Shown piece by piece: positions 5,509 through 30,741 of a stretch of DNA of 34,345 nucleotides. The notes below the pieces were generated by a model that was not told the origin of the DNA, ran no database searches, and saw only the letters and a program-made list of their open reading frames with translations. The first letter of the stretch is position 1, and the number at the start of each line of letters is the position of its first letter. This stretch comes from Clostridia bacterium (GTDB lineage: Bacteria > Bacillota > Clostridia > CAKSNL01 > HGM11501). Where the stretch lies: assembly GCA_045545475.1 (NCBI GenBank), contig JAZQAZ010000026.1:1-34345 (forward strand), given 5' to 3'. The position numbers and the translations under genes were made by a program.

Positions 5509-6000
5509 ATGTTACAGACAATGATTGCGGTAATATTAATCGTAATTTCTTTTTTCTTATTTTTCGCTTTCAAAAAAAGCGACCTGCTGTTTCCTACATT
5601 GCACACACTTTTCACAATAACTGTTTTCCTGGTCAGCTTCATCGGCAATTTCGGCCTCATCAGACTTTTATTTATTCTTCCTATATTTGCCCACCTTATA
5701 GTTTTTATTGCCGCAAATGTGAGCTATTATCCTTTTTATAAAAAGCATACAGCACCTGCCAGGCTCAATGCTCTTTTGAATATTTCATTTATGACAGGTT
5801 ATTTATTTCTCCCTGAAACCGATGAAGTATATTCTTACGCATTATTCGGCTTGATTAAAGAAAACACAGACATCGCTTACATAATTTCCGGAATATTTCT
5901 CACATTAAACGTAATACTGTTAATATGGCAGTTTATCCATAACATATTAACCGGTCGCAGAGCCTCCGATAAAGAAGTATTAAAAGAGCCTTCGGATTAA
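5509..6000 (+). CDS. Hypothetical membrane protein
   Basis: 163 aa with about 5 hydrophobic segments; GAGGTG RBS. Confidence 0.7.
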   Translation: MLQTMIAVILIVISFFLFFAFKKSDLLFPTLHTLFTITVFLVSFIGNFGLIRLLFILPIFAHLIVFIAANVSYYPFYKKHTAPARLNALLNISFMTGYLFLPETDEVYSYALFGLIKENTDIAYIISGIFLTLNVILLIWQFIHNILTGRRASDKEVLKEPSD

Positions 6001-11273: not shown

Positions 11274-11331
11274 AAAAAGAGGATGCATCAGCATCGCTCC
11301 TTAGGGGCTTTGCTTACGCTTCCTCTTTTTT
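11274..11331. repeat. Hairpin repeat family copy 1 (bidirectional terminator-like)
   Basis: AAAAAGAGGATGCATCAGCATCGCTCCTTAGGGGCTTTGCTTACGCTTCCTCTTTTTT between convergent genes. Confidence 0.8.
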
Positions 11332-13550: not shown

Positions 13551-13609
13551 AAAAAGAGGATGCGTAAGCATTGCTTCTTAGGAAGCTTTGCTTACGCATC
13601 CTCTTTTTT
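13551..13609. repeat. Hairpin repeat family copy 2 (bidirectional terminator-like)
   Basis: Perfect 20-bp arms AAAAAGAGGATGCGTAAGCA / TGCTTACGCATCCTCTTTTT with inner GCTTC-ttag-GAAGC. Confidence 0.85.
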
Positions 13610-15502: not shown

Positions 15503-16351
15503 ATGTCAACTCAAATTCATATCAAAAAAATCACAGCCATAAATTGCTATGAGCTTTCGCCCTCCTTTGATTCCAGAAAACATACCCACGATGCCTGGGA
15601 GCTCTTCTACTCTGACAGCGGCACCATGAATGTATGCTACGAAGGAAGCGAGCCCTTTACCCTGAAGGCAGGAGAGATTTTGCTTCACAAGCCCATGATC
15701 CCTCACGTCACAGTTTGCGACGGAAAGCACAGTGCGGTATTTTTTAATGTTATATTTAAAAGTGCTTCGCCTGCACTTGAAATGCTTTCGGGGCATCCCA
15801 TAGCCGTTCCCGAAAGGCTTACTCCGCTTATTTCCGAAATAATAAAGGAAGCCAGAAGCAATTATATCTTTTCCGTTCAGCCGATAAAAAAAGCCTCCGA
15901 TGCTCCAATAGGCGGCGAGCAGATGTTTAAAAGTTATCTTGAGATGTTTCTCATCCATATCCTTCGTTGCTGTAAAGTCAAAAACGAAAACCGGAGACAA
16001 GGCTCCGGAAACAATGTCCCGGAGGACGATGTTTACCGCTTCCTTTCGGAAAACATCTGTTCCGGACTTACGCTTGATGATATATGCGAGCATTTTCATT
16101 TCGGAAAAACCCATATTTCGGTGAGCTTTAAGAAGAAATTCGGCCTTTCAATCATAGATTGCTATCTGAACTTAAAGATAAATGAGGCAAAACGGCTGCT
16201 GAGAGAGGAAGGCTTAACCATACGGGAGATATCGGAAAGGCTGTGCTTTGACAGCCCCGAATATTTCTCCCGATGCTTTAAAAAGCGGACAGGTCACACC
16301 CCTAAATCCTATAAAACATTGCTTATTGATGGAAAAATAGAGAAAAAATAA
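15503..16351 (+). CDS. AraC family transcriptional regulator
   Basis: Cupin HTHDAWE...PMIPH; HTH tail LCFDSPEYFSRCFKKRTGHTPKSYK. Confidence 0.92.
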   Translation: MSTQIHIKKITAINCYELSPSFDSRKHTHDAWELFYSDSGTMNVCYEGSEPFTLKAGEILLHKPMIPHVTVCDGKHSAVFFNVIFKSASPALEMLSGHPIAVPERLTPLISEIIKEARSNYIFSVQPIKKASDAPIGGEQMFKSYLEMFLIHILRCCKVKNENRRQGSGNNVPEDDVYRFLSENICSGLTLDDICEHFHFGKTHISVSFKKKFGLSIIDCYLNLKINEAKRLLREEGLTIREISERLCFDSPEYFSRCFKKRTGHTPKSYKTLLIDGKIEKK

Positions 16352-16369
16352 TTAAAAGGCGGAATTTTA

Positions 16370-16696
16370 ATGTACGATGCTGCAAGAGACCCGAATGCAT
16401 TTAAGCCTATAACGGAAAATCCTATTGTTCTGGACTTTACAGGATGCAAATATTTAGGTGAAATTCATTTGATTTTAAAAACAAAATTCGGTTTGCCGGA
16501 TTATTACGGAAAAAACTGGGACGCTCTATGGGATTGTTTAAGGTACTTATTTTATCGAAGAGGCAATTTTAAAGTAAATATACTCGGCTTTATGTCCCTT
16601 CCGGAGGATTTAAGAGAATATTGCCGCACTATGCTTGAAATCTTTGATGATGTTCACGAAGAAACACCAAATGTGGTTTTCGAGCTTATTTCTTAA
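16370..16696 (+). CDS. Barstar family protein (ribonuclease inhibitor/immunity-like)
   Basis: 108 aa containing the barstar signature FGLPDYYGKNWDALWDCL. Confidence 0.88.
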   Translation: MYDAARDPNAFKPITENPIVLDFTGCKYLGEIHLILKTKFGLPDYYGKNWDALWDCLRYLFYRRGNFKVNILGFMSLPEDLREYCRTMLEIFDDVHEETPNVVFELIS

Positions 16697-16701
16697 GACA
16701 T

Positions 16702-16760
16702 AAAAAGAGGATGCACGGCAAAGCCCCCTAAGGAGCGACGCCAATACTTCCTCTTTTTTT
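16702..16760. repeat. Hairpin repeat family copy 3 (core in opposite orientation to copy 1)
   Basis: AAAAAGAGGATGCACG-GCAAAGCCCCCTAAGGAGCGACGC-CAATACTTCCTCTTTTTTT; the core is the near reverse complement of the copy 1 core GCATCGCTCCTTAGGGGCTTTGC. Confidence 0.8.
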
Positions 16761-16816
16761 ATTTACATTAAAGTGTTAAAGCAAACACACTTCTTATTGC
16801 CATACAAAACGCTACC

Positions 16817-16841
16817 AAAAATGTACGTCCCCAAATGGTAC
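16817..16841 (+). repeat. Left arm of a 25-bp inverted repeat flanking the AT-rich gene
   Basis: AAAAATGTACGTCCCCAAATGGTAC; its reverse complement matches 17492-17516 at 24/25 positions. Confidence 0.92.
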
Positions 16842-16858
16842 TAAATTGTCTATTGTCG

Positions 16859-17425
16859 CTAAAATGAATTTTCTATAGGCCCTCCAATTTCTAAATTTAG
16901 GAGTTTCAATTTATATAACTCCCACATTTCTTCAGCAGATATTAATTGTCCAAGAGTACCAATTGTTTCACTAGAAAATACTCTTGCATTAGGAAATGAG
17001 CCGAATGTAAATTCTATATCTTCAACGTCTATATCCCCAAAAGGAAAAGTTGTATAATATGGGTCTCCCATAAATACTCCTGCCATTCCACCGTCTTTGG
17101 ATATTTGGTAATAGATAATTTCCACATCATCTTTTTCTAATAAAGTAATTCGCTCAAGACCACTCGCAAATCTTTCTTCCCAAATTCTGCATTTTTCACC
17201 AATTCCTTCATTAAATTGGAATCCCTTAAATTCGCAAATATAAACATCCTCAAAAGTCATGATTTCCCCATTGAGTTCATACGTTAATTTAAACGGAAAT
17301 TCTGCATACGTTATTACAGGATATGGTGGATTTTCTGCAAAGAAACATGAAGTGAACATATACACAATCAAAATTGCAATAGCAAATATTATTGCTGTTA
17401 TAATCAAATTCTTTTTCAACATCAC
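16859..17425 (-). CDS. Hypothetical membrane-anchored protein / lipoprotein, AT-rich
   Basis: 188 aa. KK, a hydrophobic stretch and FTSC (lipobox-like); GGAGG RBS at 17436-17432; A/T-ending codons unlike its neighbours. Confidence 0.78.
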   Translation of the reverse strand: MMLKKNLIITAIIFAIAILIVYMFTSCFFAENPPYPVITYAEFPFKLTYELNGEIMTFEDVYICEFKGFQFNEGIGEKCRIWEERFASGLERITLLEKDDVEIIYYQISKDGGMAGVFMGDPYYTTFPFGDIDVEDIEFTFGSFPNARVFSSETIGTLGQLISAEEMWELYKLKLLNLEIGGPIENSF

Positions 17426-17491
17426 TTTTAGCCTCCGTTATTTTATTACTATTAATTATTTCCATACCTACTCTCAATCCCCGCTTTCACG

Positions 17492-17516
17492 GTACCATTT
17501 AGGGACGTACATTTTT
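17492..17516 (-). repeat. Right arm of the 25-bp inverted repeat
   Basis: GTACCATTTAGGGACGTACATTTTT. Confidence 0.92.
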
Positions 17517-17610
17517 CGGTCTCTTTTTTATGCTTTTGTTATTACGCCCCCGGATATTCCCCTAACTCTATGCAATTATCTTGTAATTTTTTCCGTTTCA
17601 GCTTATCTAA

Positions 17611-17639
17611 AATATAACATACATAATCTTTCCTGTCAA
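17611..17639 (-). promoter_or_regulatory. Sigma-A promoter outside the inverted repeats, pointing into the cassette
   Basis: Minus strand TTGACA (17639-17634), 17 bp, TGt-TATATT (17616-17611). It starts just downstream of the terminator of the upstream operon. Confidence 0.7.
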
Positions 17640-17646
17640 GCAACAT

Positions 17647-17674
17647 AAAAAGAGGAAGCAATGCTTCCTCTTTT
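17647..17674 (-). terminator. Terminator of the ADH-kinase-MtlD operon; short copy 4 of the hairpin repeat family
   Basis: AAAAAGAGGAAGCA-a-TGCTTCCTCTTTT, 2 bp past the stop at 17677. Confidence 0.8.
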
Positions 17675-17676
17675 AC

Positions 17677-18741
17677 TTATTTTTCAATTTTTGCACATTC
17701 GGCAAGTATTGCGTTATAAAGCTCGCTGCCTTCACTAAGTCCGCAAAGGTCTGTCAGGATTTCTCCCTTGGACTTTGCCGCCTTCATTTCTCTCCAGGTA
17801 ACATCCTTTTCGTTATCATAAAGGAGCGCTGCAGCTGCTGTCTTTATTAATACCTCAGGCATAATTCCGTTTTCGTAAATCATAACCATAGGGCCCATAA
17901 TTCTTTCGCCCTTTGCAAGCTTTCTTTCGGGGTCTCTTGCATTTCTTGCAACGGTATCAACAATTACCTTACTGCAGAACTTTTCCTTGGAAAGTGCCGC
18001 AAATTCTGCCTGATCAGCTTCCTCATAACCGAATTCCTTGCATAAAACCTTATTTGTAACTTCATAGTTTTTATCAAGAAGCTCAAGTATTTCGGGATCG
18101 TTTGCAGCCTTTGCATAGTCGGAATAGCCCTTGATATAGCCAAGATATGCAATTACACAGCTTGCCGCATTGTAGGTGTAAAGCTTTCTTGTCAGGAAGT
18201 TTCCGAAATTGTCGATGGGACGGATGCCCTTAATCTTCATTTCGTAGCCGCCAAGTAAATCGGCATTGCACTGAAGGTAGGGATAGTTTTCGGAATCTAT
18301 GTTAAGTCCGTCATCTGTTGTTGTGCAGAAAACTGTGGATTCGCTTACGGAAATGTCCTTGTTTCCGATTGCTTCACCTAAAACCACAGAGGGCTTTGAT
18401 GAGTTTTCACAGGTAATGATTGTATAGTGCTTATCGTCCTTTAAGAGGGGCGAAAGTGATGCACCAACATCCTTTAAGTTCTGACCGCCAACGGAAACCA
18501 GAATAAGGTCAGAATCTCCAAGGTCAGCATCTTCCCAGGTGTATGCAGAAAAGTTTGTAACCTTAAAGTCTTCTCTTACGCCGCCGAAAAAGCGAACGGT
18601 AAATTCCTTTTTTGCATTTAATTCATCAACCAATGCCTTATCCTTATCGATGAACATAATTTCGGCATTGTCTTCCGAGAGTAATCTTCCTATAAAGCCT
18701 CTGCCTGTTTTTCCGGCACCAACTACAACTATTTTACTCAT
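17677..18741 (-). CDS. Mannitol-1-phosphate 5-dehydrogenase-like (MtlD family) polyol-phosphate dehydrogenase, paralogue B
   Basis: GAGKTGRGFIG, TCEN, RKLYTYNAAS, RNARDPERKL. Confidence 0.85.
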   Translation of the reverse strand: MSKIVVVGAGKTGRGFIGRLLSEDNAEIMFIDKDKALVDELNAKKEFTVRFFGGVREDFKVTNFSAYTWEDADLGDSDLILVSVGGQNLKDVGASLSPLLKDDKHYTIITCENSSKPSVVLGEAIGNKDISVSESTVFCTTTDDGLNIDSENYPYLQCNADLLGGYEMKIKGIRPIDNFGNFLTRKLYTYNAASCVIAYLGYIKGYSDYAKAANDPEILELLDKNYEVTNKVLCKEFGYEEADQAEFAALSKEKFCSKVIVDTVARNARDPERKLAKGERIMGPMVMIYENGIMPEVLIKTAAAALLYDNEKDVTWREMKAAKSKGEILTDLCGLSEGSELYNAILAECAKIEK

Positions 18742-25347: not shown

Positions 25348-25387
25348 AAAGCGATTAAGGACTACTTAGTCCTTAATCGCTTTTTTG
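25346..25387. terminator. Bidirectional terminator
   Basis: AAAAAGCGATTAAGGACTA-ct-TAGTCCTTAATCGCTTTTTTT between convergent genes. Confidence 0.85.
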
Positions 25388-26170
25388 CTTTTTTAATGCT
25401 ATAACCGCAAAAGTAACAGAAATTAAAATAACCCCTGTAAAAATCAATCCGCCTTCAATTCCGAAAGCACCACCTGACAAAATTTTCTTTCCGGAAACCA
25501 TTTCAGATTGCATTATGGTATCGCCTATCACTACTCCGCTTACATTTACCCCGAAAACATTTCCCATAACAAAATTCCACGCCGTATGCACACCGGATAC
25601 TAAAAATATACTGTCTGACTTCAAGAACAAAAGTGACAAAAATATTCCATAAAGAAAAATATTAAAAAGTGCCATAAAATCCACACCCGGATTAGTGATA
25701 TGAGCCAGAGAGAAGAATGCCGCACTTAATAATATTCCTGTTATATCGTTTGATTTTCTTGCCAGGGAAATCTGCAAAAGTCCTCTGAAAAGCACTTCTT
25801 CCGCCATAGCCTGAAAGGCAAAAAACAAAAATGCAAAGATAATTGACAAAGAAGCTTTTTCAGAAAACCCTTGGAAAACAATACTGCCGGTTATGAGATT
25901 TAACAGATAAACAACTAAAACCAAAGCACTTCCCTGAAGAAGTCCGGAAGCGTAGTTTTTAATTGCTCCCTTTTTCACAAACCCCATACTTTTTATGCTT
26001 CGCTTTTCAATGCATTTTACGTATAAAAACCCAAGTAGATAAATAATTAAAAATTTTAATATATGAACGCCATAAAAGTTATTTATCCCAAGACTAATTA
26101 CCGAAGAGGCAGCAATATCCGATATTACACATATTAAAAATGCCGCAAGCAAGGTTATAATAACGGCCAT
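25373..26170 (-). CDS. CPBP (CAAX/Abi) family intramembrane metalloprotease
   Basis: EEVLFRG, FSLAH, HTAWN, GGAFGIEGG. Confidence 0.9.
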   Translation of the reverse strand: MAVIITLLAAFLICVISDIAASSVISLGINNFYGVHILKFLIIYLLGFLYVKCIEKRSIKSMGFVKKGAIKNYASGLLQGSALVLVVYLLNLITGSIVFQGFSEKASLSIIFAFLFFAFQAMAEEVLFRGLLQISLARKSNDITGILLSAAFFSLAHITNPGVDFMALFNIFLYGIFLSLLFLKSDSIFLVSGVHTAWNFVMGNVFGVNVSGVVIGDTIMQSEMVSGKKILSGGAFGIEGGLIFTGVILISVTFAVIALKKQKSD

Positions 26171-29542: not shown

Positions 29543-29560
29543 AGGAGAAACGTTTCTCCT
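29543..29560. promoter_or_regulatory. LacI-family operator upstream of the SDR-transketolase operon
   Basis: Perfect 18-bp palindrome AGGAGAAACGTTTCTCCT with the LacI-type central AAACGTTT; shares its core with 30683-30716. Confidence 0.82.
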
Positions 29561-29625: not shown

Positions 29626-30666
29626 TCATTCCACATCGGAAAGTAAGTAAATACACGGCCTTACAGAAATTTTATCAGGCGATTTAAAGTTCTCGTTGCC
29701 ATAGCTGCTTTTTTGCACCAGATAATCGTATGCCGTCATCACCGCACTTTTACCCACTTTTTCCTGATTCTGATAAATCGTTCCCTTAACAATGCCCTTT
29801 TGCATATAACGTAAGATTCCTTCAGGGACGTCTGTTGCGATAAGAGCAATATCCTTATCTTTTAAATTTTCTTCAATATATCTGCACACAGGCTCAAAGG
29901 TCGCCGTTGTAACATAAACCGCATTTACCTGAGAATCTGAAAGGCATTTTGCCATTTCATAGGTCTTTTTTCCGTCATCCGCTGTCTCATTAAGAAAAGA
30001 AATTTCTCCGCCATAGCTTTCAACACGCTCCGAAAAGGACATAACCTTTTCCCTATGGGATTTCACGGAAAGAGAGCCTGTAAATACCGCCGCTTTTATA
30101 TCGTTCCCTTTTATACACTTAAGAAAGTCTGCCGCAATTTTTCCGGAAAGTATGCTGTCAGGCATTATTTCGCAAACGCTTTCTATTTCGTCAAAGCTGT
30201 CGCCTGCAATAAATACCGGTATTTTTGATTTTTTGATTGCCGTCGCAAAAGCTTCATGCATAGAATAAATAGAAGGGCAGTAAATTATTGCATCAATTTT
30301 TCCATCCTTAATCCATTTCAATGCTTTTTCAGCTTCTTTTTCCGTAATATCGGAAGAAAGATAATAAAACGAAGCACTCACCTTGAAGGTTCTAAGCTTT
30401 TCTGCTTCCTCTATCATACCCTCTTTCATTGATGCGAAATAGTCCTGCCAGAGTGAAGGCATTATAATTCCTATATTTATGCTTTTTCTCGCAAGAGTCT
30501 GCGCTACACTGTTCACCTGATAGCCCATCTTCTTTGCGGTTTTCAATACCTCTTTACGTCTCTCTTCACTTATTCCGCCTTTTCCTGTCATAGCTTTATG
30601 AACAGTGGAGAGAGAAATATTAAGTTCCTTTGCGATATCTTTCACAGAAACCTGCTTTTTCATCAT
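29626..30666 (-). CDS. LacI family transcriptional regulator
   Basis: VSVKDIAKELNISLSTVHKAM...GYQVNSVAQTL followed by a periplasmic-binding-protein-like effector domain. Confidence 0.92.
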   Translation of the reverse strand: MMKKQVSVKDIAKELNISLSTVHKAMTGKGGISEERRKEVLKTAKKMGYQVNSVAQTLARKSINIGIIMPSLWQDYFASMKEGMIEEAEKLRTFKVSASFYYLSSDITEKEAEKALKWIKDGKIDAIIYCPSIYSMHEAFATAIKKSKIPVFIAGDSFDEIESVCEIMPDSILSGKIAADFLKCIKGNDIKAAVFTGSLSVKSHREKVMSFSERVESYGGEISFLNETADDGKKTYEMAKCLSDSQVNAVYVTTATFEPVCRYIEENLKDKDIALIATDVPEGILRYMQKGIVKGTIYQNQEKVGKSAVMTAYDYLVQKSSYGNENFKSPDKISVRPCIYLLSDVE

Positions 30667-30682: not shown

Positions 30683-30741
30683 AATAGGGTTAGAGAAACG
30701 TTTCTCTAACCCTATTATACATAATTTTTACTTTTTGTCAA
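30683..30741 (-). promoter_or_regulatory. lacI promoter with an overlapping autoregulatory operator
   Basis: TTGACA (30741-30736), 16 bp, TATAAT (30719-30714). Perfect 34-bp palindrome AATAGGGTTAGAGAAACGTTTCTCTAACCCTATT (30683-30716). Confidence 0.85.

Follow-up and report, generated by a model that had tools for sequence, protein, structure and literature searches.

Integrons rely on the tyrosine recombinase IntI and on attI and attC sites, and the recombinase-associated orphan-immunity arrays of Bacteroidales (rAID) rely on a XerD-like tyrosine recombinase and dif-like sites. Y1-HUH enzymes cut and rejoin single DNA strands. Among the latter are the TIRYTs, the transposases of TIRtrons (Di Nocera et al. 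2013, PMC3733652), a class in which a Y1-HUH gene, about 240-270 aa long and with the motifs NHVH and YxHxNP, lies between inverted repeats (TIRs) with a G-run core. In the text of Quentin et al. 2018 (PMC6006769), this class is equated with the TnpA_Y1 subclass 2.1, the second-largest of the TnpA_Y1 subclasses, found in 14.9% of strains; subclass 2.1 has also been equated with RAYT Group 1 (10.1101/2020.03.09.984088), and Clostridia are listed in the text of PMC5581495 as having Group 1 RAYTs with moderately repeated flanks. As far as the text of the published accounts goes, the TIRs face inward around the transposase, and neither passenger genes, nor Clostridia, nor internally deleted mini-elements are part of the description.

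Two other systems are close to this class. REPtrons, REPINs and BIMEs, known from E. coli TnpA_REP (PMC3333891) and from RAYT Groups 2 and 3 (PMC5581495), resemble what we describe here in that, in the text of these papers, a domesticated Y1-HUH enzyme goes with repeat doublets that are non-autonomous, with tandem amplification on a local scale and, as proposed, with ssDNA circles. In particular, E. coli TnpA_REP acts on ssDNA, which it cleaves and recombines across more than 400 nt around the repeat, and the excision and reinsertion of a circle is the model proposed for it in the text of PMC3333891. REPs are described there as GTAG-tagged stable hairpins, present genome-wide in hundreds of copies, whereas the TIRs considered here fold weakly, retain transposase remnants and cluster in cis, and the GTAG foot was absent from eight TIR strands folded as ssDNA (energies of -0.3 to -3.8 kcal/mol). 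No passage on a REP-flanked colicin-immunity gene was found in PMC3116915. The nearest precedent is that of the subclass 2.1 fragments interspersed with prochlorosin genes: in the procA arrays (Laurenceau et al., 10.1101/2020.03.09.984088), full-length and C-terminal tnpA_REP fragments of the same subclass are found amid variable accessory genes, and the mobilisation of procA by the transposase was proposed there, not shown. The procA genes face the transposase, belong to one gene family, and no inverted repeats were found around them, whereas the cargo in our window and in Acetoanaerobium noterae is co-directional, TIR-bounded and of varied families.

The likeness to integrons and rAID is one of logic, with repeat-punctuated, co-directional accessory or immunity genes near a recombinase and a promoter coming from the recombinase side. 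Here, by contrast, the enzyme would be a Y1-HUH transposase, with a deleted copy of its own element as the spacer, and the movement of the cassettes is putative; no integrase was found among the 12 window proteins scanned or is evident in the list of open reading frames. TIRtrons and clustered TIR families are already known, and what appears to be new from our alignments are the outward TIR pairs around cargo and the cis arrays of mini-TIRtrons. Searches of the open-access literature found a description of neither, text of PMC3733652, PMC6006769 and 10.1101/2020.03.09.984088 being among the sources covered.

The repeat pair and its cognate element

The window, that is, the whole stretch of 34,345 nucleotides of Clostridia DNA that was analysed, contains two 25-nt arms that are reverse-complementary at 24 positions, as a sequence-only reading of the same DNA had stated (Table 1). 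The inverted repeat stretches to 41 nt at 80% identity (16801-16841 and 17492-17532), and a 25-nt inverted repeat with at most one mismatch arose in 0 of 30 first-order shuffles (range 16-23). Even with up to 8 mismatches allowed, the 25-mer has no further copy in the window, and the outer edges of the arms show no direct target duplication. An Rfam scan of the window gave no match, and a blastn search of plasmids and phages with the cassette yielded short chance-level matches only (best E 2 and 0.06).

A 20-letter pattern taken from the repeat was scanned against 185,579 GTDB genomes and matched one locus, L001, in a Clostridiales MAG. The repeat is found twice in these 14 kb, as 36-nt arms at 92% with their T runs directed inward, around a gene of 245 aa. 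The corresponding protein matches Y1_Tnp (PF01797, E 2.9e-12) and reaches 65 bits, below the cut-off of 80, with the NCBIfam model for REP-associated tyrosine transposases. It carries NHVH, YVHQNP (5/6 of Y[IV]HLNP) and YSYSSY as SS motif, the marks of subclass 2.1 in Table 1 of PMC6006769 being NHVH or NH[YF]H, Y[IV]HLNP, a downstream SS motif and about 238 aa. The W[EQ]/FQ motif is absent from the L001 protein, and FQ is present in the related protein of A. noterae (L004). Neither of these two proteins has a Pfam match for a C-terminal HTH, and their relatives in Sporomusa (L005) and Collinsella (L003) give Bac_DnaA_C and HTH_23 below cut-off; the tail of the L001 protein is strongly conserved across 120 homologs. 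Its matches at E <=1e-40 comprise at least 607 proteins. Judging from these motifs and from the gene's position between TIRs, the cognate element of the window repeats is a predicted TIRYT/TIRtron, of the Y1-HUH TnpA_REP subclass 2.1. It lies within an RHS toxin/immunity array (L001 5389-14001), which it interrupts, and directly adjoins a peptidoglycan-binding toxin C-terminal cassette, the reading frame of which stays open as far as the TIR.

The window holds the ends of such an element. The left TIR region is 84% identical to the upstream TIR region of L001 over 49 nt (E 5e-6), and the left TIR is 92% identical to the downstream one over 37 nt. Read on the minus strand, this left TIR shows a GGGAC core followed by the T run, with its outer end toward the cargo stop codon, and the right TIR has its outer end toward the cargo 5' leader. 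The published consensus, GGGGWSAS, covers most TIRs, some falling outside it according to the text of PMC3733652; the core of the window arms differs from it at 2-3 of 8 positions (GGGGACGT fits at 6/8, AGGGACGT at 5/8), and the Sporomusa TIR fits it fully. These repeats are almost certainly TIRtron TIRs. Their polarity is nonetheless the opposite of the one expected: the T-run ends point away from the cargo, whereas in L001 they point at the transposase, and the orientation of an intact TIRtron is absent from the locus, where the arms enclose a non-transposase gene. The locus is a TIRtron derivative, and not a TIRtron itself.

The sequence-only reading had ventured that the ends might be handled by an HUH/Y1 enzyme encoded elsewhere, and had proposed looking for copies that flank a RAYT gene. 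L001 bears out both points, with a TIR pair that flanks a Y1_Tnp gene. The other enzyme it had considered, a tyrosine recombinase, found no such backing, no link to a tyrosine or serine recombinase having been found.

Element remnants, promoter and cargo

The right flank, 17492-17582, is 85.7% identical to L001 7001-7090 along 91 bp (E 8e-23), a span that takes in the downstream TIR and the last 17 transposase codons. The translated remnant is identical to the end of the L001 protein at 12/17 residues, the score of the DNA beyond the TIR was reached by 0/500 shuffles, and a weak similarity may extend to about 17613. A TIRYT profile of 120 sequences detected no intact TIRYT gene in the window, and its best stretch was this same remnant (E 0.25, below the inclusion threshold). 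The initial statement that the window holds no transposase is thus right for an intact gene, and wrong as regards this 3' remnant. Since the right flank consists of a TIR and a TIRYT 3' end, the cargo lies outside the two TIRs; on these alignments it would sit between two co-oriented deleted elements and not within one. The reversed polarity of the window TIRs is explained in the same way, because the flanks are element remnants.

In the left flank, the 12 bp past the T run resemble those that precede the transposase promoter of L001, and the next 29 bp resemble the intact promoter of the window. This probable decayed promoter copy has 20/35 identities with the intact right promoter (one of 8 registers, p 0.001 uncorrected) and 15/35 with the L001 promoter in the same register (p 0.05), and the left alignment to L001 beyond the TIR is weak, 45/500 shuffles having equalled its score. 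A 5' remnant of the element on this side is suggestive.

The near-consensus promoter at 17639-17611 that had been noticed at first was recovered, with its TG, and ranks first among the 3 sites found in 16300-17800; what sets it apart is its score alone, because shuffled sequence has a mean of 5.2 promoter-like sites at 9/12 or more. A weak promoter-like site (9/12, 17477-17448) lies between the repeats. The promoter had been placed outside the repeats, which holds as seen from the cargo; with respect to the element, it is on the transposase side of the TIR, as is the TIRYT promoter in L001. It shares 19/35 identities with the latter and probably derives from it, a descent that is likely, not proven, because the identity of the spacer alone (7/17) is not significant. 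The order on the minus strand would thus be promoter, TIRYT 3' remnant, downstream TIR, cargo, upstream TIR and, suggestively, decayed 5' remnant. Taken together, these features designate the locus as a putative permuted, deleted derivative of a TIRYT element.

Table 1. Coordinates of the features at and around the window locus
Feature	Position	Strand	Evidence or remark
Barstar-family gene, outside the TIRs	16370..16696	+	PF01337, E 7.5e-21; GC 0.358
Related palindromic hairpin between barstar gene and cassette, left border of the insert	16702..16758	.	
Candidate 5' remnant, made of the 12 bp past the TIR and a probable decayed promoter copy (16803-16775)	16775..16816	-	suggestive
Upstream-type TIR of predicted TIRYT/TIRtron element	16817..16841	-	alignment to L001; alignment of six TIRs
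Cargo gene, 187-188 aa, GTG start	16859..17425	-	N-terminal membrane helix and mostly beta domain
Ribosome-binding site GGAGG of the cargo	17432..17436	-	sequence inspection
Downstream-type TIR of predicted TIRYT element	17492..17516	+	start of the 91-bp alignment with L001 7001-7090 (85.7% identity, E 8e-23)
TIRYT (Y1-HUH) pseudogene remnant: last 17 codons and stop, one internal stop	17528..17582	-	alignment to L001
Sigma-70-type promoter TTGACA-17-TG-TATATT	17611..17639	-	11/12 consensus; reads through remnant and TIR into the cargo
Bidirectional terminator-like hairpin, end of the mannitol-dehydrogenase-family operon, right border of the insert	17648..17674	.	

The insert has araC-barstar on one side and the mannitol-dehydrogenase-family operon (mtlD) on the other. 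The barstar-family gene adds another gene of immunity type next to the cassette, and no barnase partner for it is found in the window. The hairpins at the borders belong to a family of palindromes of 28-58 bp (A-run, GAGGA...TCCTC, T-run) found at 11274-11330, 13551-13608, 16702-16758 and 17646-17674; they sit between convergent genes, have no Rfam match, two of them border the insert, and they are probably bidirectional terminators of common origin. Elsewhere in the window, an identical 14-bp palindrome is found at 29545-29558 and 30693-30706, on both sides of a gene (29626-30666) read as a LacI-type regulator, of which these are likely the operator sites. Two more genes have a low GC content, 5509-6000 (0.348, no Pfam match) and 25373-26170 (0.351), with no TIR nearby.

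The single open reading frame between the repeats is indeed AT-rich, as had been seen, with a GC content of 0.321 that is the lowest of the 31 genes compared (0.415 for the window), and it looks acquired. It is tightly bounded, 17 bp separating its stop codon from the left arm and 66 bp lying on the other side. The family comprises 700 clusters at 50% identity, and its named members come from Paenibacillus, Brevibacillus, Oxobacter and other Bacillota and are all hypothetical. The protein has no match in Pfam, NCBIfam or PADLOC, nor in PDB by sequence, and an Atlas search gave unnamed clusters only. Its structure model (pLDDT 89) combines a helix at the N-terminus with a domain that is mostly beta; Foldseek gave nothing at E <=0.001 and VIA-align a best Z of 3.3, which is not proof of a new fold. 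The "lipoprotein-like" label initially given to it is doubtful: the N-terminal hydrophobic helix is found in 134/143 aligned members, a strict lipobox in 9/143, and the Cys26 column is not conserved. The window protein itself has FTSC, and the lipidation of this particular member is possible. A 380-aa protein of the family (P0004) shows several matching stretches and is probably a tandem-domain form.

The genomic context of cargo homologs was considered at two loci, one of which adjoins a toxin. In Monoglobus (L002), a homolog 38% identical to the cargo comes directly behind an RHS-lipase C-terminus, with a stop/start overlap, in an array of RHS toxin and immunity pairs; the toxin piece is the C-terminal part of an RHS protein that appears to carry a frameshift, with a Lipase_3-like GHSKGG domain, and no TIR was found near the homolog. 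At the other locus (L014), two paralogs stand in tandem after a gene read as whiA, and there is no toxin gene in these 2.7 kb. The family thus shows traits of polymorphic-toxin immunity genes, namely a position directly downstream of a toxin C-terminal domain, tandem copies and diversity. Because a family member lies directly behind an RHS lipase-type toxin, at one locus, the cargo is probably an orphan immunity gene, its product being a candidate immunity protein against a toxin of this type.

The leader within the right TIR (17456-17495, minus strand) has an open frame of 13 codons followed by four stops, and in one comparison this frame bears a faint resemblance to the Monoglobus lipase toxin's C-terminal tail. 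It could be the trimmed end of a cognate toxin gene, a likeness that stays anecdotal because a homolog search with the toxin tail found that tail itself as sole match.

TIR arrays in Acetoanaerobium noterae and other relatives

A tblastn search with the L001 protein returned 18 records of a plasmid collection and one phage record, of which 4 of the 18 and the phage record were examined. A. noterae (NZ_CP154629.1) has one TIRYT, 38% identical to the L001 protein over 176 aa, between perfect 25-nt TIRs that have a GGGACG core and a T run in common with the window TIRs. In the 312 kb covered out of this 2,634-kb record, there are about 35 TIR copies, all of them in the 81 kb adjoining the TIRYT (341,957-423,194; L009, L007 and L004), and none in the remaining 231 kb; another filter put their number at 34. 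A local BLAST gave 30 TIR matches in this cluster against 32 places in the whole 2.63-Mb record, with settings that may differ slightly.

Most of these TIRs form doublets, with interiors of 41-137 bp. When nine of the mini-elements were compared with the last 50 bp or so of the TIRYT, five matched at 84-90% and four had no match. An inner flank of the TIRYT-3' type is found in 10 copies, all on the strand of the parent element, and in 0/16 on the other strand. Many outer ends carry short partial duplications that start at the same outer pentamer, which may be the cut site.

Ten intervals between elements have the outward polarity seen in the window: one is empty, five are short, with one to three genes, and four are long or housekeeping. 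The short ones contain a DUF4160 and DUF2442 pair, which we take to be toxin-antitoxin-like; an MCP-like gene; an AlbA_2/HATPase gene; an HTH_3/M78/PIN-like trio with PADLOC similarity to capH, capP and PDC-S70; and a Fic gene with SoFic similarity. The content is toxin-antitoxin or defence-like in 4/5 of them. The long or housekeeping ones correspond to mazG-HU-S4-divIC-ppx, a 7.5-kb ABC operon, a 17-kb block and a 20-kb block. All five short cargos run in the direction of the TIRYT, which is uninformative since 193/231 ORFs of the region share this strand, and their GC content (0.275-0.375) is only partly under the regional median of 0.363. It had been suggested at the outset that copies of the repeat be checked for the genes they bracket, and related repeats do bracket varied accessory genes in A. 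noterae. The gene array is nevertheless one of a distant relative only, because L001, the sole locus with the TIR sequence of the window, has 2 copies in 14 kb.

Sporomusa, which has TIR pairs (L005 and L015), carries a plasmid mini-element (L015 33097-33492) in which the TIR and the first 53 bp or so are joined to the last 349 bp of the TIRtron, and this deleted copy is located 10 kb from the intact TIRtron; no outward-bracketed single gene was found there. A TIR pair is present in Iodobacter (L013), examined around the Y1 gene only, and Collinsella (L003) and the phage record (L006) have more distant Y1 genes without a clear TIR pair. Several records look chromosomal despite their labels: A. 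noterae (2.63 Mb with purine operons) and L002 (518 kb with purB and proC), both labelled plasmid, and L014, labelled phage (2.7 kb, with a whiA-like gene).

Mobilised or bracketed cargo

We read the window locus as a stranded piece of a TIRtron-punctuated gene array whose cargo was mobilised through the TIRs, and give this whole reading a probability of roughly 0.5. One of its supports is that, in L001, this TIR pair encloses an intact Y1_Tnp gene. The TIRYT would cut and rejoin ssDNA at or near its own TIRs, so that internally deleted mini-elements would arise, keeping the promoter and the 3' end, and would multiply locally in one orientation. A gene caught between two mini-elements could then leave as a circle made of one mini-element and the gene, and reinsert elsewhere; the reopening of this circle within the mini-element would yield the permuted order seen in the window. 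In the present case, the orphan immunity-like membrane protein would have been taken from an RHS toxin locus and would be expressed constitutively from the element-derived promoter. Active cassette exchange is what we infer from this scheme, and TIRYT-type transposases may collect accessory genes into arrays in an integron-like way. In its strongest form, which we put forward as a speculative proposal with the odds somewhat against it, TIRYTs would run an analogue of the integron, deleted copies acting as recombination sites and portable promoters for the ssDNA-circle capture, arraying and export of single accessory genes (orphan immunity, toxin-antitoxin, defence), and the window would be one exported cassette.

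A serious contender, whose chances we place not far short of even, is that the bracketing is passive. TIRtrons and mini-TIRtrons would hop locally, like REPINs, into intergenic gaps, favouring variable regions such as RHS arrays; two would have landed beside an immunity gene, and the block would then have been moved by ordinary horizontal transfer and trimmed by deletion, the TIRYT never having carried the gene. Indeed, the A. noterae mini-elements are also found between housekeeping genes, 4 of the 10 intervals being long or housekeeping and one empty; TIR singles, dimers and clusters are already described in the text of PMC3733652; the Monoglobus homolog of the cargo does without TIRs; and the authors of the prochlorosin study later saw no strong indication either way as to a causal link between transposase and cargo (10.1101/2020.03.09.984088). 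Against this, each side of the window keeps just the element half that adjoins the cargo, both halves with promoter-like sequence, and this favours one permuted circle because passive bracketing needs two insertions and two deletions. The proximity of the TIRs to the gene on both sides and the toxin-antitoxin or defence-like genes in 4/5 of the short A. noterae brackets also speak against it.

An invertible ON/OFF switch was one of the two options of the sequence-only reading. In it, the gene between the 25-bp arms would be flipped with respect to the fixed promoter outside, either by a tyrosine or serine recombinase acting in trans or through homologous recombination, and the geometry permits it, with near-perfect arms, a promoter outside and a terminator-like hairpin past the other arm. 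We consider it improbable: the arms are explained as Y1-HUH TIRs that face outward from the cargo, with flanks that are asymmetric element remnants, no invertase is found among the window ORFs examined, Y1 enzymes work on one strand in the account of PMC3333891, and 0/5 of the short A. noterae brackets hold a reversed gene, a weak argument given the strand bias. A classical non-autonomous transposon (a MITE or transporter IS of the DDE family, whose inward-facing TIRs would carry the gene) has two short inverted repeats around a single gene in its favour and is very improbable, as there is no direct target duplication at the outer edges, the cognate gene in L001 is Y1_Tnp and not DDE, and the right-flank alignment, running outward into the Y1 gene and not into target DNA, appears largely to refute it.

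The reading of the locus as part of a TIRtron-punctuated array offers subclass 2.1 a concrete candidate substrate, the TIR, together with natural products, namely mini-elements that are co-oriented, cluster in cis and carry partial duplications at their outer end. It also offers this subclass a candidate role, that of moving and expressing accessory genes such as those for orphan immunity. If the movement of the cargo is true, this would be a system of gene cassettes that relies on a single-strand HUH enzyme, and not on a tyrosine recombinase. If it is not, the findings still give an account of how such TIR families come about, and flag a large unnamed family of candidate immunity proteins.
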